DNA from: Flavobacteriales bacterium
GTDB lineage: Bacteria > Bacteroidota > Bacteroidia > NS11-12g > UBA9320
Length of the DNA stretch: 64,000 nt
Assembly: GCA_020635395.1 (NCBI GenBank)
Contig: JACJZV010000004.1
Location: forward strand, 159,429-223,428
Reading direction: 5' to 3'
Shown here: one piece after another, positions 3,867-58,177 of the stretch
Layout of the letters: every line of letters starts with the position of its first letter
Position numbering within the stretch: the first letter of the stretch is position 1
Translations under genes and position numbers: made by a program
Notes under the pieces: model-generated
What the model was told of the DNA's origin: nothing
What the model saw: the letters and a program-made list of their open reading frames with translations, nothing else
The model's database searches: none

Positions 3867-5750
3867 GTGAAAAAAAAGAGACAGTTGGTGGCGGTGATTG
3901 GAGCGGCTTTGGCATTGCTTCTGGTTATTTGGTTTGTAAGAAATAAGCAACCAACCAAGACTATTTCGGAGAATAACCAAAACGAGAAGGGTAAAAGCGA
4001 TTCTGGATTATCGAAAAAAATAGAGCCCGAAAGCAAAAGCCCAACGTATGCCGATTCTTCAAAAAAACTTAACGCTAATACAAACCCAACCGAACATCCA
4101 TCTGCCACACCGCTAAAAGAAATTGAAAAAACTAAACCAAACAAAAAAGGTGTTCAGCTTGGCTATTATGTATCTCCGATAGATGGCGAGATTTTATTGT
4201 CCGGAACTTTTGCCGAGCTGAGGAACAACCATTTTCATGGAGGGCTTGATATACGCACGGGAGGAGTGGAAGGTAAGCAGGTAAAGGCCGCTGCGAGTGG
4301 CTTTGTCAGCCGTATAAAAGTGGACGAAAAAGGGTACGGAAAGGCTCTCTATATCCAGCATCCCAATGGCACTACCACTGTTTACGGGCATCTACAAAAG
4401 TTTTATGGCACAATTCAAGAGGAGGTAATTGCACACCAATATGCCCTTAAAAACTATGAGTTTGACTGGTATGTACCTGCCGGGAAACTCCCCGTTAGTA
4501 AAGGGCAGGTGGTGGCCATAAGCGGCAACACCGGCGGTAGCGGAGGCCCACATTTGCATTTCGAAATAAGAGATAGTCGAGGGCGAACGGTAAATCCATT
4601 GCTGTACGGTCTTCGGGTGGATGACAATATTTCTCCGACCATAGGTACTTGTTTTTTATATGCCATTGACCACACTCGATATGCCCAATATGGCATTTAT
4701 GCCGGACAAAAAATTCAAAAAAGTGGAAGCAGTCTTGATGTAGCTCCCGGGCAATACGCCGTGGGTGCCAACTGGATTGACTTTTTTACGGATAGGATGA
4801 ATAAACTAGGTATAAACTACGCCGAACTATCTGTAAACGGTAAAACTATTTTTACGCAAACCATTGAAGATTTTGATTTTGACCAAGGGAGATACATCAA
4901 TCAACATATCGATTATTGGTATTTTGCCGAACATGGAGTGCGATATGTAAAGATGTTTAAAGACAATGGAAACAAACTTCACTTTTATAAAGGTAACGGC
5001 ATTTTTGAGGTAAAAGATTCTGAAACACTCAAAATAAGCGTTGCCATAAAAGATTTTTCGGGACACGCTGATACATTTTGGTTCAATCTTATTGGAAAAG
5101 AAACTGCAAAACCTCTGACAGCCGGTGGCACCAATATGGCCGGAAATAGCCAATGCACCGCCGGAAAGACAAACATATTAAAATCTACCAATGCCATAAT
5201 AACACTTCCCTCAGATGCTTTGTATAACGATACCTACATGAGCATTTCTGAAACCCCGGCCACAGGCAATGCCGTTTCGCCCATGATAAAGGTAAATAAT
5301 GCCAATGTGCCTTTGCATAAATCGGCTACCGTGCAAATTAAAATACCCGATGGCGTGGCTGATGAATCTAAACTTGTGATGATGAGTTACGATAAAAACA
5401 CCAAAACCAGTGATTATGAAGGTGGGAAAGTGTCGGGAAATTATATAACCGAAACTTCAAAAGAGTTGAGTGTTTACTATCTGGCGTATGATGATACAGA
5501 GCCCACAATTACTCCGTTGAATTTAGGTAATTCATTATCTTTTAAGGTGGTGGACAATCTCAGCGATATAGACATCTACAATTGTTATATCGACAACAAA
5601 TGGGTTTTGCTGGAATATGAACCAAAGTTGAACAGACTATTTGGTTCAGTACCGAACTGGATAGAAGCCGGAAGCCATACACTTAAACTTGAGGTGACCG
5701 ATGGAGCCGGAAATAAAGCTGTGCTTGAACGAACAATTAATACAAAATGA
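3867..5750 (+). CDS. M23 family metallopeptidase (LytM-type), membrane anchored
   Basis: GTG start. The N-terminal TM segment is LVAVIGAALALLLVIWFV. M23 motifs HFHGGLDIRTG and GNTGGSGGPHLHFEIR are present. Confidence 0.85.
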   Translation: MKKKRQLVAVIGAALALLLVIWFVRNKQPTKTISENNQNEKGKSDSGLSKKIEPESKSPTYADSSKKLNANTNPTEHPSATPLKEIEKTKPNKKGVQLGYYVSPIDGEILLSGTFAELRNNHFHGGLDIRTGGVEGKQVKAAASGFVSRIKVDEKGYGKALYIQHPNGTTTVYGHLQKFYGTIQEEVIAHQYALKNYEFDWYVPAGKLPVSKGQVVAISGNTGGSGGPHLHFEIRDSRGRTVNPLLYGLRVDDNISPTIGTCFLYAIDHTRYAQYGIYAGQKIQKSGSSLDVAPGQYAVGANWIDFFTDRMNKLGINYAELSVNGKTIFTQTIEDFDFDQGRYINQHIDYWYFAEHGVRYVKMFKDNGNKLHFYKGNGIFEVKDSETLKISVAIKDFSGHADTFWFNLIGKETAKPLTAGGTNMAGNSQCTAGKTNILKSTNAIITLPSDALYNDTYMSISETPATGNAVSPMIKVNNANVPLHKSATVQIKIPDGVADESKLVMMSYDKNTKTSDYEGGKVSGNYITETSKELSVYYLAYDDTEPTITPLNLGNSLSFKVVDNLSDIDIYNCYIDNKWVLLEYEPKLNRLFGSVPNWIEAGSHTLKLEVTDGAGNKAVLERTINTK

Positions 5751-6286: not shown

Positions 6287-6440
6287 GGAATAATTTGAAC
6301 CATTTAGGCATTAAGAAAATTAAGACTTAATGAACCTAAATTTTTTAATGGTTTTAAAAAGAAGGAAATATTTAAACCATTTAGGTATTAAGAAAATTAA
6401 GACTTAATGAACCCAAATTTCTTAATGGTTGAAAAAAATT
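6287..6440. repeat. tandem duplication, 2 x 77 bp, each unit containing an imperfect hairpin
   Basis: Unit 1 is 6287-6363 and unit 2 is 6364-6440, matching at nearly every position by eye. Core AACCATTTAGG(C/T)ATTAAGAAAATTAAGACTTAATGAACC(T/C)AAATTT(T/C)TTAATGGTT occurs at 6298-6353 and 6375-6430. CATTAAG/CTTAATG and AACCATT/AATGGTT are inverted arms. Confidence 0.9.
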
Positions 6441-44327: not shown

Positions 44328-45431
44328 ATGACTGAATCAACGCTGTTGTATCAACTTGCACTGAGCCAAATACCCATGGTAGGCTCTGTTTTAGCTAAAA
44401 ATTTGGTTGGTTATTGTGGCAGTGTTGAAGCCATTTTTTCAGAATCTTTAAACGGCTTAAAAAAAATTCCCGGCATTGGTGAGGCAATTGCCAAATCAGT
44501 TTATAATTTTAAAGATTTTGAGCCATTGCAAAAAGAGGTTGAATTTATAAGTAGGCACCATATCAAAACACATTTTTTTACCGAAAAAACATACCCTTAT
44601 AAGCTAAAACAGATTGCAGATGCCCCCATTCTATTGTTTCAAAAGGGCGATTTTGCAGATTTTGAAAACCGCTCGTTGGCTATTGTTGGCACTCGCAAAT
44701 GCAGTGCTTTTGGCAGAGACATTACCCATCAAATCGTTGCTGATTTAAAAACATACAACCCCACAATATACAGCGGATTGGCATACGGGGTAGATGCTTT
44801 TGCACATAAAGCTGCGGTAAACAACAACCTCAAAACAATTGGTGTGTTGGCACATGGGTTGGATAGAATTTATCCGGCCACGCACTCGAATTTGGCCAAT
44901 GAAATGATTGAAAATGGTGGTGCACTTATCACAGAATACAAAAGCGAGACAAATCCGGATAGAGAGAATTTTCCGACACGAAACAGAATTGTGGCGGGCT
45001 TGGTAGATGCCGTTTTGGTAGTAGAAACAGCCATTAAAGGTGGCTCAATGATAACGGCTAATCTTGCATTTGGATATGACCGAGATGTTTTTGCCATACC
45101 AAACCGCCCGGGCGATGATAAAACGGCCGGTTGCAATTATCTGATAAAAAACAACAAAGCTACATTGGTAGAAAGTGCCGCCGATATTGCCTTTGCATTG
45201 GGATGGGACATCGAAACCAAGAAAACGACCAAACAAACGACTTTGTTTGTAGAACTTACAACCGACGAACAAATAATAGTGGATAGCTTGAAAACAAATG
45301 GGGTACTCAGCATTGATTCGCTGTCGAACCGAACCGATTTTTCTGCCAGCAAATTGGCTTTTCTTTTATTGGAACTCGAATTTAAAAATGTTGTCCGAAA
45401 TTTGCCCGGAAAACAATTTGAATTGGCGTGA
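44328..45431 (+). CDS. dprA: DNA-processing protein DprA (Smf)
   Basis: IVGTRKCSAFG, GLAYGVDAFAHKAA, FPTRNRI(V/I)AGL and GGSMITA motifs. 367 aa. Confidence 0.9.
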   Translation: MTESTLLYQLALSQIPMVGSVLAKNLVGYCGSVEAIFSESLNGLKKIPGIGEAIAKSVYNFKDFEPLQKEVEFISRHHIKTHFFTEKTYPYKLKQIADAPILLFQKGDFADFENRSLAIVGTRKCSAFGRDITHQIVADLKTYNPTIYSGLAYGVDAFAHKAAVNNNLKTIGVLAHGLDRIYPATHSNLANEMIENGGALITEYKSETNPDRENFPTRNRIVAGLVDAVLVVETAIKGGSMITANLAFGYDRDVFAIPNRPGDDKTAGCNYLIKNNKATLVESAADIAFALGWDIETKKTTKQTTLFVELTTDEQIIVDSLKTNGVLSIDSLSNRTDFSASKLAFLLLELEFKNVVRNLPGKQFELA

Positions 45432-47539: not shown

Positions 47540-47926
47540 TTAACTCCATACCACTTCTACATCATATTTTTCGAAATTTTCATCTTTGGTTATTATCGGA
47601 ATATTTTCTATAATTCCTTGTGCAACAATGATTCGATCAAATGGGTCTCTGTGATAAAAATCAAGGTCAATAATTCCAGCAATATGCTCTATCGTAATGG
47701 GTAATAGTTCAAAGTCGTATTTGGTAATTATCTTGGCTATTTCTCCAAATCCACCGTTCAAGTACAACTTATTGAGTGATATTTTAATAGCAATTTCCCA
47801 TATTGAAGCAATACTAACATAGCACTTATTATCAAGTTTTTTGATTATGTTTTTTGATTTTGTAGGTAGCTGATTGTCTCCATTTAGAAACCAAATTAAG
47901 GCATGCGTATCTAACAAATAATTCAT
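47540..47926 (-). CDS. vapC: type II toxin-antitoxin system VapC-family PIN-domain toxin
   Basis: 128 aa with YLLDTHALIW (first acidic residue), SIWEIAIK and HRDPFDRIIVAQ (PIN acidic residues). TAATG overlap with the upstream antitoxin ORF. Confidence 0.85.
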   Translation of the reverse strand: MNYLLDTHALIWFLNGDNQLPTKSKNIIKKLDNKCYVSIASIWEIAIKISLNKLYLNGGFGEIAKIITKYDFELLPITIEHIAGIIDLDFYHRDPFDRIIVAQGIIENIPIITKDENFEKYDVEVVWS

Positions 47927-48132
47927 TATTGCATATACTCTTTAAAATCTTCTAAAGCATCATCAAAATTATCAGGCATGTTGAACATTCCCTTGGCACA
48001 ACCAAATTCTCGTTGTTTTACTTCAATTTTTGACTTGCCTTTTGATTTTAAAAAATCCACAAAATCCTTTACTTCCTGCTTTAGTGCCGCTGGAAGTTTA
48101 CTAATTTCAGTGTAAAGTTGGATATTATCCAT
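47926..48132 (-). CDS. DUF2281-type antitoxin
   Basis: 68 aa with ISKLPAALKQEVKDFVDFLKSK ... REFGCAKGMFNMPDNFDDALEDFKEYM, matching the DUF2281 pattern. Translationally coupled to vapC. Confidence 0.72.
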   Translation of the reverse strand: MDNIQLYTEISKLPAALKQEVKDFVDFLKSKGKSKIEVKQREFGCAKGMFNMPDNFDDALEDFKEYMQ

Positions 48133-50429: not shown

Positions 50430-51032
50430 TCATCCCGACTTTCTTAATTCAAACAGCCGATTTTCCCGATAGAACTTTTCTTGCCTTTTTAACATGTAAT
50501 GTTCGCCTGTTTGTCTTAGTGTTACTTTTTTACTGAGCTGCCGAGTTAACATTATATGTGTTTCCCAAGAGTATTCGGGGCTTAGTTCAATCATCTGCCC
50601 ATACGTCTTCAAAGATTCTACGATAATTTTCCCACCCCAATAATTTAGAACAACGACCCCTGCAGAATCTAAGGAATACATTGAATCATTATATTCCATA
50701 GAGATTCTCTCGTCGTGTCGTCTTAAACACCAATCCAAAATCTCAATAGTTATGCGATTTGTATCTAGTTCATAATCAAAATCCGCTTGCCTATCTAAAG
50801 GTTGAAATTGAAAAATGAATGAATCATTAATCTGTTTATAGATTCCACGACCAATTACCTCGGTAGTACAATCACTCTGCAAAAACAAGAAATTTCGGTT
50901 GGTTGTATCCAAATAGTATTGACTGTAGGTTATAGTAGAATCAAACGCCTGTTCCAAAATGATTTGAGCCCGGGTTTGGAATGCCAACACGTTTGGAAAA
51001 ATAAGTATCAAAATTTGTTTCCACTTTCTCAT
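50430..51032 (-). CDS. hypothetical secreted protein
   Basis: 200-aa ORF with signal-like MRKWKQILILIFPNVLAFQTRAQ. No family recognised. AT-rich. Confidence 0.5.
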   Translation of the reverse strand: MRKWKQILILIFPNVLAFQTRAQIILEQAFDSTITYSQYYLDTTNRNFLFLQSDCTTEVIGRGIYKQINDSFIFQFQPLDRQADFDYELDTNRITIEILDWCLRRHDERISMEYNDSMYSLDSAGVVVLNYWGGKIIVESLKTYGQMIELSPEYSWETHIMLTRQLSKKVTLRQTGEHYMLKRQEKFYRENRLFELRKSG

Positions 51033-51042
51033 TAAAATCTAG

Positions 51043-51552
51043 CTAATCCGTAATTTCAACCTTATCAAGATTTGAATCAACTAATATCTTGTTTGACCAA
51101 ATTTCTTTGCCCTTGTGAGAAATGCCTAACCTAAACCCCGATTCTGCATCAGAGTCTGTTGCTGCCAAACGCCTCACCGTCAAATGATAGATTTTCGTTT
51201 CCAGTGGTTTGATAGCCTCAGTCAGTAAACTTGAACAATAGCATATTTCCCGATTCTCAAAATACATTTCAAAATGCTCTTTGTTGTCCAGCATAAAACT
51301 GCTTTCCACATTACATGAGTGCGGATTGAAATGTTGGTCTGAATGACCCGAATTAAAAACACGCAACTCAATAAAAAAGAGGTCGTTTTCTATTTTTTCT
51401 ATTTCAGCGTAAATTTCTAGAAAAGAATATGGAGAAACTTCTTCTTTTGATTTTTCCAATTTTGCTATTTGAGATTCTGTTTTTTGACATCCAACAAAAG
51501 CCACACATGAAAGCAGAAAGAGCAATAGATGAGAGGCGATTCGTTTATGCAT
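51043..51552 (-). CDS. hypothetical lipoprotein
   Basis: 169-aa ORF with lipobox LLSCVAFVGC. No family recognised. Confidence 0.5.
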   Translation of the reverse strand: MHKRIASHLLLFLLSCVAFVGCQKTESQIAKLEKSKEEVSPYSFLEIYAEIEKIENDLFFIELRVFNSGHSDQHFNPHSCNVESSFMLDNKEHFEMYFENREICYCSSLLTEAIKPLETKIYHLTVRRLAATDSDAESGFRLGISHKGKEIWSNKILVDSNLDKVEITD

Positions 51553-51670
51553 TATGTCAAAGATAGGTTTTTTAACTTCTAATCAACAATACCCATAAAA
51601 AATCCACAATTCACTGTAACTTTTTTGATGCTTTGCTACCTTGCGGCTCAAACAAAAAAAACAGTAACGC

Positions 51671-54600
51671 ATGCCCGATTTTTGTCACCTTCATTGTCAT
51701 TCTCAATTTTCGTTGTTAGACGGGGCTGCCAGCATTCCGGGCATGATGGCCAAGGCAAAAGCCGACGGCATGAAAGCCGTGGCCCTTACCGACCACGGCA
51801 ATATGTTTGGTGTTTTTAAGTTTGTTACCGAAGCCGAAAAACATGGCATAAAACCCATTGTGGGCTGCGAATTTTACGTGGTGGAAGACCGACATAGACG
51901 CTCATTTACGGGTGGCGACCGCGACAATAGATACCACCAACTTATGTTGGCCAAAAACCAAGAGGGGTATAAAAATCTATCAAAACTTTGCTCTCTGGGT
52001 TTTATTGAAGGGCTATACGGAAAATACCCTCGTATTGATAAAGAACTAATCAAAAAATATAAAGATGGCATTATTGCCACCACCTGCTGCATTGGGGCGG
52101 AGGTGCCACAAGCCATTTTGCACAAAAGCGAAGAAGAGGCAGAAAAGGTATTTTTAGAATGGCTCGACATTTTTGGCGAAGATTATTACATAGAGCTGCA
52201 ACGCCACGATTTGAAAGACCTTGACCGAACAGGCAAAAGCCAAGAAGATGTAAATCAGGTGCTTTTAAAATGGAGCAAAAAATACAATGTTCCAGTTATT
52301 GCCACCAACGACTCTCACTATGTAAACGAGGAAGATTGGAACGCTCATGACATTTTGCTGTGCATAAACACCGGCGACTCGAAAGCTACACCAATTGGAG
52401 ACGGAAGAAATGAGCGATTTGGCTTTCCCAACAACCAGTTTTATTTTAAAACTCAGGCAGAGATGCTGCAAAAATTCAGCGATGTGCCTCATGCGTTGGA
52501 TAACACCAACCTTATCATTGATAAAATAACTCCGCCACAATTGCAACGAGATGTACTTCTCCCGCACTTTGTGCTGCCCCCGGGTTTTAAAACACAAGAT
52601 GAATATCTTCGATATTTGACTTATGAAGGAGCCAAAAAAAGATATGGAGAAATAACTGAAGAAATTAGAGAACGATTGGATTTTGAGCTTTCTGTTATCC
52701 AAAATACCGGATACCCTGGCTATTTCCTTATTGTGCAAGATTTTACCTCAGTTGCCCGCCAACTGGGAGTTTCTGTCGGTCCCGGTAGAGGCTCTGCCGC
52801 CGGTTCGGCGGTGGCCTATTGTGTGGGTATTACTAATGTGGACCCCATCAAATACGACCTTCTGTTTGAGCGTTTTTTAAATCCTGAGCGGGTTTCATTG
52901 CCCGATATTGATATTGACTTTGACGATGTTGGACGGGGCAAAGTAATTGACTATGTGGTTGACAAATACGGAAAACAGAATGTAGCACAGATTATAACGT
53001 ATGGCTCTATGGCCGCCAAATCTTCTATTAGAGATGTAGGACGAGTATTGGATTTGCCGCTTCCCATCGTGGACAAAATAGCCAAAAAGATTCCTGATAT
53101 TTCTTTAAAAAGCATTTTTAATGACGATATAAAAGTGCTGAAAGAAAGACTAAACTCCGACCAAATGCTGAATGTGGAGGAGTTAAGAACACTTTCGTCC
53201 GAAAAATCATTAGAGGGAGAAGTATTGCGGGAAGCCCAATTGCTGGAGGGTTCGGTCAGAAATACTGGCATACACGCTTGTGGTGTTATTATCACCCCCG
53301 AGGAGATTACCAATCTTATTCCGGTAACAACAGCCAAAGATTCGGATTTATTGGTAACCCAATTTGACAACAGTGTGGTGGAAAGTGCCGGATTGCTCAA
53401 AATGGACTTTTTAGGATTGAGGACTCTATCCATTATTAAAGATGCCATTGCACTTATAAAACAACGCTTTGGCATAGACATAGACCCTGACGAAATACCA
53501 TTAGAAGATGAAAAAACCTACGAACTGTTTCAAAAAGGCCAAACCATTGGCATTTTCCAGTTTGAAAGTGATGGTATGCAAAAACATTTGCGTGCTTTAA
53601 AACCCACCAAATTTGAAGATTTGATTGCCATGAACGCCCTTTATAGACCGGGGCCAATGGAATACATACCCAACTTTGTTGACCGAAAACACGGCAGAGA
53701 GGAAATTGTGTATGACGACCCCGACATGAAAGAGTTTTTGGAGGAGACTTATGGCATTACGGTTTATCAAGAGCAGGTAATGCTACTCTCGCAAAAGCTG
53801 GCCGGATTTAGCAAAGGCGAGGCCGACAACCTTCGGAAAGCCATGGGTAAAAAGAAGAAAGACATCATCGATAAGATGAAACCCGACTTCATAAAAGGTG
53901 CGGAAGAACGGGGCCACCAACCCACCGTGATGGAAAAAGTTTGGAAAGACTGGGAGGCCTTTGCGGCATACGCGTTCAACAAAAGCCACGCCACGTGCTA
54001 CTCAGTTGTGGCTTTCCAAACGGCCTATTTAAAAGCCCATTATCCGGCAGAATATATGGCGGCGGTGCTAACGCACAACATGAGCGATATAAAAAAACTT
54101 TCGATGTTTATGGAAGAATGCAAAAACATGAAAATCGAAGTTTTGAGTCCGGATATAAACGAAAGCCTTTTGTCGTTTTCGGTTAATAATGAGGGAAACA
54201 TACGGGTTGGAATGGCCGCAATAAAAGGCGTTGGCGAGGCTGCCGCTGAAGAAATTGTGCGAGAACGAAATGATAAAGGAGCTTTCGACTCCATTTTTGA
54301 CCTTACCAAACGGGTAAATTTAAGAACAGTAAACAAAAAATCACTCGAAGCATTGGCTCTTGCGGGTGCCTTCGACCGTTTTGAAGGTTGCTACCGCTCC
54401 ATGTTGGTAAGCGACAATAGCGAAACAAGCGGCATCGAACTCGCCCTAAAATTTGGCAACCAATATCAAGCCGAGCAATTGACATCGCAAGCCAGTTTGT
54501 TTGGTGGCGATTCAGGCGTTTCGCTGAGCGAGCCAAAACTTCCGGAAATTCCTCCATGGAATAAAATGGAAATGCTGAATCGCGAAAAAGAAGTAATAGG

Positions 54601-55210
54601 CATGTACATTTCAGGTCACCCATTGGATGCACATAAGACCGATATTGAGATTTTCTGTAATATGCAATTAGCAGATTTGACGGATGAAAACATTCAGAAA
54701 ATAAACAGACCCATAAAACTTGCTGGAATCGTTACGGTACACAACAGTCGCATAAACAAGTCCGGCAAAGCCTTTGGCATTTTCACCGTAGAAGATTACT
54801 CCGGGACATACGAATTTGCACTTTTTGGAGATGATTACGCCAAGTTTAGAGGATATCTTGCCCCAAATTCGATGCTGTATTTGACCGCAAAAACACAAGA
54901 CAGTTTTCGCGACCCTGGAAGAAAAGAAATTCGCCTGGTATCGATTGACTATTTGGAGGACATACGCGAAAAATATCTCGAAAAACTTACCTTAACTATT
55001 GATTTAGAAAAACTTGACGACAAAATGGTGACCGATTTGCACACCATTAATTCAGACAACAAGGGTACCACCAGTTTGGTGTTTGAAATACGAGACAAAG
55101 AGCTTCGCTACAAAATTGACCTGCTCAGTACCGGTCAAAAAATCAACGTCACCAACGAGTATATCTCCGAATTGCGGCGAATGGATTTGATGCCCAGGTT
55201 TAATGGGTGA
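51671..55210 (+). CDS. dnaE: DNA polymerase III subunit alpha
   Basis: 1179 aa. PHP domain FCHLHCHSQFSLLDGA, then GPGRGSAAGS, PDIDIDF and AFNKSHA motifs. Confidence 0.97.
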   Translation: MPDFCHLHCHSQFSLLDGAASIPGMMAKAKADGMKAVALTDHGNMFGVFKFVTEAEKHGIKPIVGCEFYVVEDRHRRSFTGGDRDNRYHQLMLAKNQEGYKNLSKLCSLGFIEGLYGKYPRIDKELIKKYKDGIIATTCCIGAEVPQAILHKSEEEAEKVFLEWLDIFGEDYYIELQRHDLKDLDRTGKSQEDVNQVLLKWSKKYNVPVIATNDSHYVNEEDWNAHDILLCINTGDSKATPIGDGRNERFGFPNNQFYFKTQAEMLQKFSDVPHALDNTNLIIDKITPPQLQRDVLLPHFVLPPGFKTQDEYLRYLTYEGAKKRYGEITEEIRERLDFELSVIQNTGYPGYFLIVQDFTSVARQLGVSVGPGRGSAAGSAVAYCVGITNVDPIKYDLLFERFLNPERVSLPDIDIDFDDVGRGKVIDYVVDKYGKQNVAQIITYGSMAAKSSIRDVGRVLDLPLPIVDKIAKKIPDISLKSIFNDDIKVLKERLNSDQMLNVEELRTLSSEKSLEGEVLREAQLLEGSVRNTGIHACGVIITPEEITNLIPVTTAKDSDLLVTQFDNSVVESAGLLKMDFLGLRTLSIIKDAIALIKQRFGIDIDPDEIPLEDEKTYELFQKGQTIGIFQFESDGMQKHLRALKPTKFEDLIAMNALYRPGPMEYIPNFVDRKHGREEIVYDDPDMKEFLEETYGITVYQEQVMLLSQKLAGFSKGEADNLRKAMGKKKKDIIDKMKPDFIKGAEERGHQPTVMEKVWKDWEAFAAYAFNKSHATCYSVVAFQTAYLKAHYPAEYMAAVLTHNMSDIKKLSMFMEECKNMKIEVLSPDINESLLSFSVNNEGNIRVGMAAIKGVGEAAAEEIVRERNDKGAFDSIFDLTKRVNLRTVNKKSLEALALAGAFDRFEGCYRSMLVSDNSETSGIELALKFGNQYQAEQLTSQASLFGGDSGVSLSEPKLPEIPPWNKMEMLNREKEVIGMYISGHPLDAHKTDIEIFCNMQLADLTDENIQKINRPIKLAGIVTVHNSRINKSGKAFGIFTVEDYSGTYEFALFGDDYAKFRGYLAPNSMLYLTAKTQDSFRDPGRKEIRLVSIDYLEDIREKYLEKLTLTIDLEKLDDKMVTDLHTINSDNKGTTSLVFEIRDKELRYKIDLLSTGQKINVTNEYISELRRMDLMPRFNG
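55095..55210 (+). repeat. direct repeat copy A = authentic 3' end of dnaE (last 37 codons + stop)
   Basis: 113/116 identical to 56623-56738, at an offset of exactly 1528 bp. Confidence 0.95.
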
Positions 55211-55294
55211 TTGAACCAAAAAATTATTTCGCAGCTATTGAGTCTGATAAATTTATGCTATGGTATTAAAAATTGACGTACCAAAAAAAGAGAA

Positions 55295-55323
55295 TACTTT
55301 TGTGTAAACATAGAACGTTCTAT
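55295..55323 (+). promoter_or_regulatory. candidate promoter -7 box (TACTTTTG) followed by 14-bp perfect palindrome ATAGAACGTTCTAT
   Basis: TACTTTTG is at 55295-55302. The palindrome at 55310-55323 would lie just downstream of the predicted transcription start, an operator-like position. Confidence 0.35.
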
Positions 55324-55449
55324 TAATCAATTCCTTCGGATTGTTAAAATTTATCAAAATTTAAGAATGAGAAAATTAGGAAGAATAAGGAGTGCAAATA
55401 ACAAGTCTAATATATTACCTCGCAATCAATCAACCCAAAATATTATTTA

Positions 55450-56592
55450 ATGCAGAACCTGTATCCAAAAAAATTGATGAAAAACTTCTTGGTAATAAGA
55501 CAAGAGTCCGATGAGCGTAGATGCCTAACAAATCGTACCCTCAAAAAATCCACAATTCTCGGTATTTTTTTGTTTCATTCTCTTCTCATTCAAGCTTTTA
55601 GCATTGATTCCTTGTTAAATGCCCCCATTAATTTAGATTCAAACGTACAGGTCTATTACGAGCATTTTAATAAGGGTCGGATGCAAGTTTTTCATAAGAA
55701 CTACGATTCGGCATCCTATTATTTCTATGAGGCATTCAAAGTTCATAAGGAGTTTGGGTTACATATTCAGTACTTTGTAAATGTTGAAATTTATTTTGCT
55801 CCAAATCCAGACGAGAAAAAACTAAAAGACTATATCCAAGAATACTTAACCTATTTCATTGATTACAAAACAAGCACATTTTTAAATGCTGAGCGAAGAG
55901 CCAAATTACCACTTTCGGTTCTCGAATATGTTGATTCGAATAAAGACAACTGGAGAATGACTTTTTTAATGAATCATGATGTAAATGCAGCTCGAAGTGT
56001 TCGGTATTACGATATTATCGACCAATTTCTTAGAATAAATGTTTACAAACATATCGATAGTACTACGCGAGTTGAAATATTAAAAAATCCAACTCAAGAT
56101 ATAATGACCTTAAATACTGCCCTATACACTTCCTTTGACAAAACCTCGCAAAAATACATTTTGAATTACGTTGAGGAATTTGGTTATCCCAAAGAAAGGA
56201 GAGAATTTGGCAGTATAGCTTATGCTGATTTTTACTTGCTTATGCGTCATTGTTTTTCAAAAAGAAGTGACACCGCCGTATTAAACATGATACTGACTGC
56301 CATGATCAAAGGTGTGGAGAAAGGATATCTCTCCAATGATTATTTTGCATCTTGCGTTGACTATGATTTTGGGTTTGACCCGGCAACTGGGTACAGAAAA
56401 CATTACTATGGTTCATTGCCTTTTGTTGGATATGGGTTATCCGAGAAAAGACAATACTACAATCTTGCAAAAGTGGACGAAATGCGAAAAAAAATTGGCT
56501 TACTAACTTTGTATGAGGAAGCCATGCTTCAAAACGAATTGGATGACTTACCTGCCGAATATATAGCTCAATACGGTGACACTAATCGGTAA
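55450..56592 (+). CDS. hypothetical protein carried by the dnaE-flanking islet
   Basis: 380-aa ORF with an N-terminal hydrophobic segment STILGIFLFHSLLIQAFS. Tyr/Phe-rich with no catalytic motif recognised. Alternative start MKNF at 55477. Confidence 0.6.
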   Translation: MQNLYPKKLMKNFLVIRQESDERRCLTNRTLKKSTILGIFLFHSLLIQAFSIDSLLNAPINLDSNVQVYYEHFNKGRMQVFHKNYDSASYYFYEAFKVHKEFGLHIQYFVNVEIYFAPNPDEKKLKDYIQEYLTYFIDYKTSTFLNAERRAKLPLSVLEYVDSNKDNWRMTFLMNHDVNAARSVRYYDIIDQFLRINVYKHIDSTTRVEILKNPTQDIMTLNTALYTSFDKTSQKYILNYVEEFGYPKERREFGSIAYADFYLLMRHCFSKRSDTAVLNMILTAMIKGVEKGYLSNDYFASCVDYDFGFDPATGYRKHYYGSLPFVGYGLSEKRQYYNLAKVDEMRKKIGLLTLYEEAMLQNELDDLPAEYIAQYGDTNR

Positions 56593-56622
56593 AGATAAGA
56601 TGTTTGTTATTATTAAAACTAT

Positions 56623-56738
56623 ACAAAGAGCTTCGCTATAAAATTGACCTACTCAGTACCGGTCAAAAAATCAACGTCACCAACGAGTATATCTCCGAAT
56701 TGCGGCGAATGGATTTGATGCCCAGGTTTAATGGGTAA
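56623..56738 (+). repeat. direct repeat copy B = orphan duplicate of dnaE 3' end
   Basis: Encodes the identical 37-aa DnaE C-terminus (KELRYKIDLLSTGQKINVTNEYISELRRMDLMPRFNG) plus a stop. It differs from copy A only at 56639, 56651 and 56737, all synonymous. Confidence 0.95.
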
Positions 56739-56739
56739 T

Positions 56740-56761
56740 CCTTAACTGTGAATTGTTAAGG
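56740..56761. terminator. weak hairpin between distal dnaE-end copy and convergent flotillin gene
   Basis: CCTTAAC-tgtgaatt-GTTAAGG 7-bp stem with no clear T-run. Confidence 0.3.
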
Positions 56762-56767
56762 TAACTC

Positions 56768-58177
56768 CTATTCCGTTTTCGGCGGATTCTTTTTAGAAGC
56801 TGATTTTGGAGTTTTTTCCTCTAAATCTTTGCCTTTTAAATATTCAGGCAACTGCATTCCGGCCATATTCAACAAGTCTTGAAGTGGTGGCACAGATTTA
56901 TACATACCCGACAGAAAGTTACTCGTAGAGTTTGTTCCATCTTCATTTTTGCCACTATCCCATACAGTAACCTTGTCAATTTTAATATTGCTAATGGCTT
57001 TTGCCTGAAGCTCAACCAATTCATGCAATTTGTCGGCAATGAGCAGCAAAACAGCATCTTTTGGATCTTTGCCTGCCGCACTTACAAGTTGCTCAAATCC
57101 TTTTGCCTGTTTTGTAAGCATTTCAAAATTACCCTTTGCTTCGGCTTCCAACTTCATAAATATGGCATCAGAGTCACCTTTCGCCACACGCCTTATCTGC
57201 TCCGCTTGAGCCTCAGCCGAAATTTCAATTTTCTCTTTATCAATTTGTGCAGGAACCACCACATTGGCATACTGGGTTGCCTTTTCTCTTTGTGCACGGG
57301 CATTTTCGGCCTCCTTCTCAGCCGCATACGCCTCCTCTAATGCTTTGGCCGCCTGCACTTTTTCGGTGGCAATGGCCATTTTCTCGGCTTCTGCTTCTCT
57401 CTGTCTTCTCAATGCATCCGAGTTGGCCACTTTAATTTTTGCAAGGTTCTCCCCTTCTACAGCCATCGCATTTGCATCCGACACCTTTATTCTTTGCTCT
57501 TGCAGGGCAACCGCTTCACCGATAGAACCATCTCTATTTTTTTCGGCTACACTTTTCTTTGCATCGTTTATAGCTTTGGCCGCGGCTTCTTTACCCAACG
57601 CCTCAATATACCCCGACTCATCTCGAATGTCGGTTAGGTTCACGTTTATCAATTTTAGTCCAACTTTTTTTAGCTCTGCCTCCACATTTGAACTGACATT
57701 GGCCAAGAATTTATCCCTATTGTTATTTATTTCTTCAATATCCATGGTGGCAACCACCAAACGCAATTGGCCAAAAATTATATCTAAAGCCAAGTTGTGA
57801 ATGCTATCTTTTGTCAATCCTAACAAACGTTCGGCAGCATTTTCCATTACCCCCGGTTCGTTTGATATACCTATGGTAAACCGAGAAGGTACATCCACCC
57901 GAATATTCTGCTTACTCAATGCATTGGTAAGGTTTACTTCGATGGATAAAGGGGTCAAATCAAGAAACGCATAATCCTGTATTACCGGCCAAATAAATGC
58001 TGCCCCACCATGAATACATTTTGCGGTACGGTTTAGTTTATCTCCATCTTTTCCCACCTTTCCATATACCACCAAAATTCTGTCAGAAGGGCAGCGTTTA
58101 TATCGTCTCAGAAGAGAAAAAATGAGGATAAATACAAATAAAACAGCTGCTACAATTGCTATTGCTATAGTCTCCAT
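56768..58177 (-). CDS. flotillin family (SPFH/band 7) protein
   Basis: 469 aa. N-terminal TM segment, SPFH domain, then a long Ala/Glu-rich coiled coil (AEAEKMAIATEKVQAAKALEEAYAAEKEAENARAQ), as in YqiK/FloT. Confidence 0.9.
   Translation of the reverse strand: METIAIAIVAAVLFVFILIFSLLRRYKRCPSDRILVVYGKVGKDGDKLNRTAKCIHGGAAFIWPVIQDYAFLDLTPLSIEVNLTNALSKQNIRVDVPSRFTIGISNEPGVMENAAERLLGLTKDSIHNLALDIIFGQLRLVVATMDIEEINNNRDKFLANVSSNVEAELKKVGLKLINVNLTDIRDESGYIEALGKEAAAKAINDAKKSVAEKNRDGSIGEAVALQEQRIKVSDANAMAVEGENLAKIKVANSDALRRQREAEAEKMAIATEKVQAAKALEEAYAAEKEAENARAQREKATQYANVVVPAQIDKEKIEISAEAQAEQIRRVAKGDSDAIFMKLEAEAKGNFEMLTKQAKGFEQLVSAAGKDPKDAVLLLIADKLHELVELQAKAISNIKIDKVTVWDSGKNEDGTNSTSNFLSGMYKSVPPLQDLLNMAGMQLPEYLKGKDLEEKTPKSASKKNPPKTE

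Follow-up and report, generated by a model that had tools for sequence, protein, structure and literature searches.

A one-gene islet between direct repeats of the dnaE 3' end in a Flavobacteriales genome

The islet and its neighbours

In the 64-kb window considered here (the whole stretch of DNA that was analysed), a complete dnaE gene is directly followed by a 1.4-kb interior with one intact gene, and then by a second copy of the dnaE 3' end that faces a convergent flotillin-like gene. The features of this islet and its surroundings, in window coordinates, are:

51671-55210, plus strand: dnaE, DNA polymerase III alpha, 1179 aa, complete, with PHP, DNA_pol3_alpha, finger and HHH_6 domains; it ends in the 116-nt proximal repeat copy
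55074-55094, plus strand: segment of patchy similarity, 13/21 identical to 56602-56622 (naive p = 6e-4)
55095-55210, plus strand: proximal repeat copy, the last 37 dnaE codons and the TGA stop; the functional tail
55116-55138, plus strand: inverted repeat within the proximal copy, a candidate core-like site, TTGACCTG-CTCAGTA-CCGGTCAA (8-7-8), as read from the sequence
55211-55449, plus strand: islet leader, non-coding, AT-rich (26% GC), with a predicted Bacteroidota-type promoter and a small hairpin at 55329-55344
55450-56592, plus strand: ORF380, the cargo gene, 380 aa, with a signal-peptide-like segment (residues 33-51) and an N-terminal helical-repeat region
55525-55579, plus strand: look-alike of 51579-51634, the dnaE promoter region, at about 75-77% across 47-56 nt and with AAAAAATCCACAATTC included, inside the 5' part of the ORF380 coding sequence
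56593-56622, plus strand: 30-nt spacer that separates the ORF380 stop from the distal repeat copy, with no terminator-like structure
56623-56738, plus strand: distal repeat copy, an orphan dnaE tail with a TAA stop, no gene body upstream and out of frame with ORF380
56740-56761, no strand assigned: hairpin CCTTAAC-N8-GTTAAGG with a 7-bp stem, within the 29 nt that separate the distal tail from the convergent flotillin gene
56768-58177, minus strand: flotillin-like SPFH/Band_7 gene, the right-hand neighbour of the islet, convergent with dnaE

The two repeat copies are offset by 1528 nt and identical at 113 of 116 positions, with a longest perfect run of 85 nt; they differ at 55111 (C in the proximal copy, T in the distal), 55123 (G/A) and 55209 (G/A). 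Coordinates, identity, offset and mismatches all reproduce the original prediction, which had also stated, rightly, that the distal copy still encodes the identical DnaE-end peptide. Full-length DnaE is completed by the proximal copy, and none of the window shuffles held a second copy of the 116-nt segment. An in-register similarity comparison places the right end of the repeat 1 nt past the stop codon, and leftwards finds weak similarity over a further 21 nt before the background level is reached. This patch differs from the 116-nt block in divergence (Fisher p = 1e-5), and may be due to microhomology at the left junction or to chance. The candidate inverted repeat is likewise a lead only, with a chance probability of about 0.1 by our own estimate and with the mismatch at 55123 abutting its spacer. 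Replacement of the DnaE C-terminus was also considered and rejected, the tail in the window being no more divergent than that of the outgroup L007.

The interior is poor in GC (0.26 in its non-coding part and 0.35 in the ORF, versus 0.40-0.45 in neighbouring core genes), although the GC3 of ORF380 (0.344) lies inside the native range. The predicted promoter in the leader comprises TTG at 55273-55275 and TACTTTTG at 55295-55302. Low GC, a promoter of its own and a single intact ORF support an insertion-like structure as judged from the sequence. Composition, promoter and single ORF thus stood as originally described, whereas the ORF is not a strict orphan, having two distant homologues (see below). 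Within the window, the interior resembles nothing except the dnaE promoter region and has no second copy; derivation of the interior from dnaE was rejected, the 56-nt promoter look-alike being the sole match. A transposon or insertion sequence was rejected as well, and with it, as had been foreseen, a transposase target-site duplication: there is no transposase, the islet ends carry no terminal inverted repeats, and the duplication measures 116 nt and is not of the short target-site type.

The intergenic hairpin was confirmed and, as predicted, lies downstream of the distal copy only; the 68-nt stretch 56733-56800, which includes it and two further small hairpins, has a folding z of -2.2. The small hairpin in the leader is a separate one, 118 nt past the proximal stop. 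No known RNAs or tRNA targets were found.

Both islet junctions are present in raw reads, with no assembly artefact at the junction level, since two sequencing runs, assembled independently at k=31, yield contigs that end at precisely the points expected of a true repeat. Of the Logan contigs, L023 (1503 bp, recovered from two runs) matches window positions 55179-56681 exactly, so that it consists of the interior plus 30 nt (k-1) past the discriminating SNPs at 55209 and 56651, and the contig L025 ends at 56707, 30 nt before the SNP at 56737. Furthermore, identical DnaE, ORF and flotillin proteins occur on two NCBI contigs (1.66 Mb and 0.2-1 Mb), whose neighbouring proteins were treated as mostly the same in the look-ups.

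The cargo gene and the search for relatives

ORF380 has no match in Pfam, NCBIfam or PHROGs, and a word-indexed search of 5.8 billion proteins returned only the protein itself. A full HMMER scan of 1.84 billion representatives recovered two distant homologues, which share a motif with the C-terminal part of ORF380; profile and second-generation searches added no others, and DUF6624 came up as a weak lead only. One homologue follows a tandem paralogue and the other lies beside an ornithine/DAP decarboxylase gene, and neither is at dnaE. Viral, phage and plasmid collections held no homologue of ORF380. A single-sequence structure model was useless (pLDDT 37), and a three-sequence model was only partly confident, with residues 63-175 helical; a PDB fold search with the ORF380 model gave only TPR-like, non-significant matches (E > 0.7). 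By sequence and by predicted model, ORF380 resembles no recombinase. It appears instead to be a rare secreted protein of a tiny family without a link to dnaE, phage or plasmid DNA.

All records of the protein come from this genome's own assemblies and reads, as a 303-aa call on the two NCBI contigs and as the 380-aa form on L023, and exact-protein look-ups of flotillin, DnaE and RpsO likewise led only to this genome's own assemblies and reads. Genome and metagenome scans put the nearest available genomes at about 80% DnaE identity, with a different gene order downstream of dnaE. Among 13 relatives at this distance, none has a duplicated or orphan dnaE tail, at either the DNA or the protein level, and none has an integrase downstream of dnaE. 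Related genomes carry secreted-protein genes in the same orientation directly after dnaE.

Precomputed Pfam annotation of all called genes bears out the earlier statement that the 64-kb window contains no integrase or transposase. No integrase remnant was found in the islet and no mimic of the dnaE tail in viral, phage and plasmid collections. The literature likewise yielded no paper describing integration at this 3' end, the source genome or its sequencing runs. The original prediction had named, beside homology-facilitated insertion, an integrative cassette that targets the end of an essential gene, and this idea fared poorly for dnaE: no cassette family emerged, the homologues of the cargo lie elsewhere, tail mimics are lacking, and the tail is duplicated in 0/13 relatives.

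Possible origins of the islet

We tentatively read the islet as the scar of a single homology-driven insertion-duplication, now immobile and not self-mobile, a reading that falls somewhat short of probable. The donor would have been DNA of a closely related strain in which the ORF380 gene followed dnaE, recombining with the chromosome through the dnaE tail as homology. Two routes are conceivable: a circularised fragment could have entered by one RecA-dependent (Campbell-type) crossover, or homology-facilitated illegitimate recombination (HFIR) could have placed the left crossover within dnaE and made an illegitimate right join at 56622/56623. The stop codons of dnaE and flotillin are just 29 nt apart, and it is therefore the duplication of the tail that would have made an insertion tolerable. 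The distal tail is dead DNA before the original hairpin and the convergent flotillin gene, and would afterwards have gained three GC-to-AT transitions. Encoding no recombinase, the islet could then only be lost, through recombination across the 85-nt identical stretch.

Several observations support this homology-driven reading. The repeat is much longer than typical attachment-site repeats, and at 116 nt with an 85-nt perfect run it is long enough for RecA-dependent recombination. By Pfam annotation, the 64 kb contain no integrase or transposase, and the islet has room for one intact ORF only. Moreover, the native-range GC3 of ORF380 fits a compositionally similar, related donor, and the secreted-protein genes found after dnaE in related genomes suggest that a donor arrangement of dnaE plus a secreted-protein gene is natural in the clade. 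The end of the repeat at the stop codon is as expected if two lineages differ in sequence after dnaE. Additionally, HFIR has been documented as a RecA-dependent way of taking up foreign DNA that is homologous at a single anchor (PMC6382021).

Other observations count against it. Neither the donor arrangement (dnaE, then ORF380) nor an empty site (dnaE directly before flotillin) was found in genome, metagenome and protein collections, which contain no close relatives, the closest genomes being at about 80% DnaE identity. HFIR usually deletes recipient DNA and does not duplicate it. The 21-nt patch and the dnaE-promoter look-alike in ORF380 are not predicted by homology-driven insertion, and the candidate 8-7-8 inverted repeat beside 55123 would fit the core site of a tyrosine recombinase. 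DprA is present, but it is near-ubiquitous, and natural transformation is not established in the lineage, which also tells against such an origin.

The three repeat differences bear on the history of the two copies. All are transitions, with GC in the functional copy and AT in the orphan copy, and all are synonymous, from which it had been proposed that both copies evolved as functional dnaE ends. That argument proved weak: because 46% of such GC-to-AT changes in the repeat segment are synonymous, simple decay of the orphan copy gives three of three with p about 0.10, and p rises to 0.22-0.30 if the changes were split between a constrained and a free copy.

The main rival, possible though on the unlikely side, is a decayed site-specific integrative element (a cis-mobilisable element, CIME): an island with an integrase would have entered the dnaE 3' end with a replacement tail, and deletions would have left one gene. 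The two tail copies would then be attL and attR, still usable by a related integrase in trans. Direct repeats of a conserved gene's 3' end around low-GC DNA are a classical att signature, and the absence of an integrase, required of a CIME, is seen here. CIMEs are by definition decayed ICEs or IMEs that have lost integration and transfer genes and kept attL and attR (PMC5704250). The candidate core-like site also speaks for such an element, with the mismatch at 55123 right beside its 7-nt spacer, and so does the fact that both mismatches on the left, like the 21-nt patch, fall on what would be the element's non-coding arm. However, an inverted repeat of this kind has a chance probability of about 0.1, 116 nt is long for an attachment site, and no integrase remnant marks the islet. 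Nor did viral, phage and plasmid collections, or the dnaE region of the 13 relatives, yield a related element, tail mimic or cargo homologue. Furthermore, over the 80 nt that follow the putative crossover, the supposedly element-borne tail has not a single synonymous difference, which argues against a long independent history of the element.

A local rearrangement without horizontal transfer is clearly unlikely. Here a template switch or break-induced repair (microhomology-mediated) would have copied ORF380 from elsewhere in the genome and re-entered dnaE 116-138 nt behind the break; as a variant, a second dnaE copy could have had its body replaced, leaving the unit behind. The three GC-to-AT transitions in the orphan copy are the pattern expected if identical copies diverged with the dead one decaying, and the native-like GC3 of ORF380 and the patchy microhomology at the left junction would also agree. 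The dnaE-promoter look-alike lies upstream of the orphan tail, in the order and orientation of dnaE itself; yet no residual dnaE similarity connects the two, and the look-alike, being inside the ORF, may simply be the signal-peptide coding region. Also against a local source, the window holds no second copy of the interior, and the identical protein is recorded only from this genome's assemblies and reads.

We regard as very unlikely a minimal, undescribed mobile cassette (a promoter, one gene and a mimic of an essential gene's tail) that would insert at the dnaE 3' end through a trans-acting recombinase specific for the dnaE tail and acting on TTGACCTG-N7-CCGGTCAA, or purely through host homologous recombination, and would alternate in the population between integrated and circular forms. 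Were it real, the dnaE promoter motif copied in its 5' part would be a hint that the two are regulated together. Nothing shows the islet to be a new kind of mobile element.

Least probable of all is a mis-threaded assembly, in which the chromosome would read dnaE, hairpin, flotillin and the 1528-bp unit would be a circle, a tandem array or part of a co-occurring strain, joined through the 85-nt core: the source genome is metagenome-assembled and the k=31 graphs fit either topology because the shared core is longer than k, but that core is shorter than ordinary reads and large assembler k values, both junction sequences are read-supported in two runs, the two NCBI contigs agree in DnaE, ORF and flotillin and, as the look-ups treated them, in most neighbouring proteins, and a 1.5-kb circle without a replication gene would not persist at assembly-level coverage.

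Comparison with known kinds of insertion

Homology-driven uptake of the Campbell or HFIR type is RecA-dependent, anchored by one stretch of homology and in need of no dedicated recombinase (de Vries and Wackernagel 2002, as cited in PMC6382021). When a circular molecule enters by one crossover, the homology segment comes to flank the insert as a direct repeat on either side, and the islet is flanked by just such repeats, 116 nt with the 85-nt perfect run. In contrast, these processes are known mainly from laboratory transformation of naturally competent bacteria, competence is not shown for the lineage here, and HFIR, whose junctions rely on 3-10 nt of microhomology, usually removes recipient DNA.

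CIMEs include an example at the fda 3' end in Streptococcus thermophilus. Like them, the islet is a small cargo-only segment without recombination genes, bounded by repeats of the 3' end of a housekeeping gene that stays intact. It keeps candidate att-like repeats and has no recombinase or transfer genes, although an insertion made without an integrase would look alike. Its repeats measure 116 nt as opposed to a few tens of nt, and its phylum is Bacteroidota. We know of no cognate integrase, ICE or IME for dnaE, and att sites of an identifiable functional family at the same target were not found in the 13 relatives, viral contigs or literature on the dnaE 3' end.

Islands that restore a gene end offer a third comparison, for example SGI1 at the trmE 3' end and the dusA-targeting islands (PMC8409611). 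In these as in the islet, insertion occurs at the end of a conserved gene and a replacement end supplied by the element keeps the gene functional; the 113/116-nt repeats, with the proximal copy completing full-length DnaE, agree with that design. SGI1 and the dusA islands carry their own integrase and excisionase, span tens of kb and are found in many genomes, with att cores that are short, whereas the islet, a single occurrence, is 1.4 kb long with just one gene and lacks a recombinase. A tyrosine or serine recombinase, as encoded by integrase-type islands and IMEs, was found neither by Pfam annotation of the window nor by the sequence and fold searches with ORF380.

If further genomes had other cargo inside these repeats, or if a dedicated recombinase existed, dnaE could be added to the landing sites of integrative elements, alongside tRNA genes, trmE, dusA and fda; there is no such evidence at present. 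Should it be nothing more than a recombination scar, the islet would be a tidy natural example of a gene wedged between tightly convergent genes, one of them essential. A duplicated essential-gene tail allows insertion without disruption, and such repeats would make the acquisition reversible by RecA. As the islet also shows, both flanks of dnaE are spots of lineage-specific gene content in this Bacteroidota group.

The duplicated end of dnaE and the unit behind it

The final 116 nt of dnaE (55095-55210) are present again at 56623-56738, at an offset of 1528 and with 113/116 identity, the functional proximal and orphan distal copies differing at 55111 (C/T), 55123 (G/A) and 55209 (G/A), just as the original prediction had described. 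No second tail copy ever arises in shuffled sequence. The interior between the copies, here called the islet, and its flanks are laid out as follows.

51671-55210 (+), dnaE, complete, 1179 aa, with PHP, DNA_pol3_alpha, finger and HHH_6 domains
55211-55449, non-coding leader of the islet, 26% GC
55273-55275 (TTG) and 55295-55302 (TACTTTTG), predicted Bacteroidota-type promoter within the leader
55329-55344, small hairpin in the leader
55450-56592 (+), ORF380, the single cargo gene, intact
56740-56761, hairpin in the 29-nt gap before the flotillin-like gene
56768-58177, flotillin-like gene (Band_7), convergent with dnaE

An AT-rich interior holding one ORF and its own promoter-like box had been anticipated and is what we find, the promoter being called on the Bacteroidota consensus. 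A 380-codon open frame at such base composition cannot be chance, and the GC3 of ORF380 is native-like. A 30-nt spacer separates the gene from the orphan tail, whose reading frame differs from that of ORF380. Interior and one tail together make up a 1528-bp unit, which occurs once, with tail repeats on both sides, and searches of the islet for known RNA families, tRNA genes and terminal inverted repeats found none.

The repeat similarity ends on the right 1 base past the stop codon, while on the left a weak in-register similarity extends for 21 nt (13/21 identical, naive p = 6e-4), with background beyond. This patch (8/21 differences) and the 116-nt block (3/116) diverge so differently (Fisher p = 1e-5) that the patch is not just an older stretch of this duplicate. 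The duplicated tail also contains an inverted repeat, TTGACCTG-CTCAGTA-CCGGTCAA (8-7-8), at 55116-55138 (distal copy 56644-56666), a candidate for the layout of a tyrosine-recombinase core site with a chance probability of about 0.1.

It had further been proposed that both copies evolved as functional dnaE ends, all three differences being synonymous. The synonymous share in this segment is 21% for all substitutions and 34% for transitions. Each of the differences pairs a GC base of the functional copy with an AT base of the orphan, and among GC-to-AT transitions the synonymous share is 46%. Three synonymous changes out of three thus have p about 0.10 if a dead duplicate simply decays, and 0.22-0.30 if the changes are split between a constrained and a free copy, so a past role of both copies as dnaE ends is not required by the data. 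An initially identical duplication fits the differences about as well. Foreign replacement of the DnaE tail was considered separately and rejected: another outgroup has a tail at least as divergent, so no sign of such an exchange is seen.

The cargo protein

ORF380, originally described as an orphan, indeed matches no family in Pfam, NCBIfam or PHROG, and only itself in a 5.8-billion-protein collection, but a full HMMER scan of 1.84 billion representatives recovered two distant homologues, P0005 (34% identity, E = 5e-45) and P0006 (E = 5e-5). Further searches for homologues added nothing to these two, and the phage, plasmid and viral collections contained none. The homologue alignment begins at residue 52, just past a signal-peptide-like segment (KK-STILGIFLFHSLLIQAFS), and both homologues carry N-terminal signal sequences, which places the true ORF380 start upstream of that in a shorter, 303-aa database call. 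The suggested structure prediction, a three-sequence AlphaFold model, is confident for residues 63-175 only, where it forms helical hairpins; its PDB matches are TPR-like and non-significant, and sequence families, model and PDB matches alike show no recombinase likeness.

Neither homologue adjoins dnaE. P0005, the closest homologue, stands in tandem with a paralogue that lies 2 nt upstream (L026 1-1406, Logan SRR33871321); the C-terminus of this paralogue shares the motif D-x-x-R-R-x-x-(I/L)-(G/L)-L and matches DUF6624 weakly, below threshold (E = 0.011). P0006 neighbours genes for ornithine/DAP decarboxylase, saccharopine dehydrogenase and SecA, and two independent ENA assemblies (L027 1-204, L028 1-203) break about 204 nt upstream of it, which suggests a repeat or strain-variable boundary.

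Within the 5' coding region of ORF380, a 47-56-nt stretch (55525-55579) is similar to the dnaE promoter region of the window (51579-51634); its Smith-Waterman score is 26, and 330 other window chunks reach 19 at most. The shared core, AAAAAATCCACAATTC, includes a DnaA-box-like motif, (A/T)AATCCACA. With TT(T) behind it, this motif recurs at a conserved place 60-80 nt ahead of dnaE, in the window as well as in eight relatives (among loci L001-L011). The likeness may be coincidental, with A/T runs contributing, or may point to a regulatory site in common or to a remnant of another dnaE copy; it is not predicted by any of the proposed origin models.

Variable flanks of dnaE

The window is core genome (dcw cluster, isc genes, aconitase, dprA, queA, dnaE, rpsO, pnp), and in its precomputed Pfam annotation neither an integrase nor a transposase nor any other recombinase occurs anywhere in the 64 kb, in line with the original prediction. 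The nearest genomes or metagenome contigs in the collections have DnaE about 80% identical; no same-species or same-genus relative was found there. Relatives differ in the genes on either side of dnaE, and both flanks are therefore variable in the clade, the 3' flank without tail duplication: in the 13 closest relatives, neither DNA nor protein comparison showed a second copy of the dnaE tail. Downstream, relatives carry a conserved LEA_2 lipoprotein gene, directly (L001, L004, L009, L011) or after one or two T9SS PKD-domain secreted-protein genes (L002 8913-11175, L005 8920-11168, L006 2623-5729). Upstream, yqeY abuts dnaE in relatives, and the window has between them, at 50430-51552, two low-GC (0.36) genes without family match, for a 200-aa protein and for a lipoprotein-like one of 169 aa, which form a second lineage-specific islet lacking a flanking repeat.

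Several smaller features were also observed. In L011, a 30-nt AT-rich direct repeat (90% identical; 3934-3963 and 5546-5575) brackets the LEA_2 gene, beginning 3 nt past the dnaE stop and returning 1.6 kb downstream; its complexity is low, and chance may account for it. The precomputed Pfam annotation places a PIN/DUF2281 toxin-antitoxin pair (about 47540-48130) and dprA (44328-45431) some kb before dnaE. Downstream of ftsZ, intergenic positions 6287-6437 hold a tandem pair of 74-77-nt units, 89% identical and each with an internal palindrome, perhaps a terminator in duplicate or a small repeat element.

Origin of the islet

The proposed integrative cassette is supported in part: the insertion-like unit with its predicted promoter and intact gene stands, but the collections searched gave no related elements, the Pfam annotation of the window gave no recombinase, and the 13 closest relatives lack the duplication. 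What lies at the end of this essential gene is one insertion-duplication that appears to be immobile. Structures of this kind are known, and dnaE as their target has no description in the literature searched.

Our leading explanation, put forward tentatively and at somewhat less than even confidence, is a single homology-driven event. DNA of a close relative with the ORF380 gene behind dnaE would have recombined with the chromosome, either by Campbell-type crossover of a circularised fragment or by homology-facilitated illegitimate recombination. This is favoured by the long, nearly perfect repeat, the minimal islet, the native-like GC3 of the cargo, the frequency of secreted-protein genes directly downstream of dnaE in the clade, and the lack of a related element family in the collections searched. 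Apart from a hit in the 29-nt gap, only tail duplication would let DNA enter here with both convergent genes left intact.

The main rival, the decay of an integrase-type islet with both att sites retained (CIME), is only somewhat less likely. Its layout is classically att-like, and the spacer of the candidate 8-7-8 repeat starts directly after mismatch 55123; however, no cognate element or integrase was found, and the 80 nt that the element would have contributed show no difference at any synonymous site. An origin by purely local template switching is more doubtful still.

A mis-threaded assembly is highly improbable: a k = 31 graph fits an empty site plus a separate 1528-bp circle equally well, but identical DnaE, ORF and flotillin proteins occur on two NCBI contigs, with mostly the same neighbouring proteins in look-ups that merged both places, and the shared 85-nt core is shorter than ordinary reads. 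One of these contigs, JAWKNP010000001.1 (1.66 Mb) of the metagenome-assembled Bacteroidota genome GCA_041391645.1, includes the window. In independent k = 31 Logan assemblies of two runs, one contig (L023, 1503 bp, from two samples) is identical to window 55179-56681 and spans the interior with a further 30 nt past discriminating SNPs 55209 and 56651, and another (L025) stops at 56707, 30 nt short of SNP 56737. These break points are exactly as expected for a true repeat, so both the tail-to-interior and interior-to-orphan-tail junctions are read-supported, which answers the earlier concern about an artefact at junction level. A further Logan contig (L029, SRR12358675), running from yqeY through the dnaE start, ends inside dnaE at codon 408 (window 52894), a possible sign that the sample has strain-level variation or a further short repeat in dnaE.
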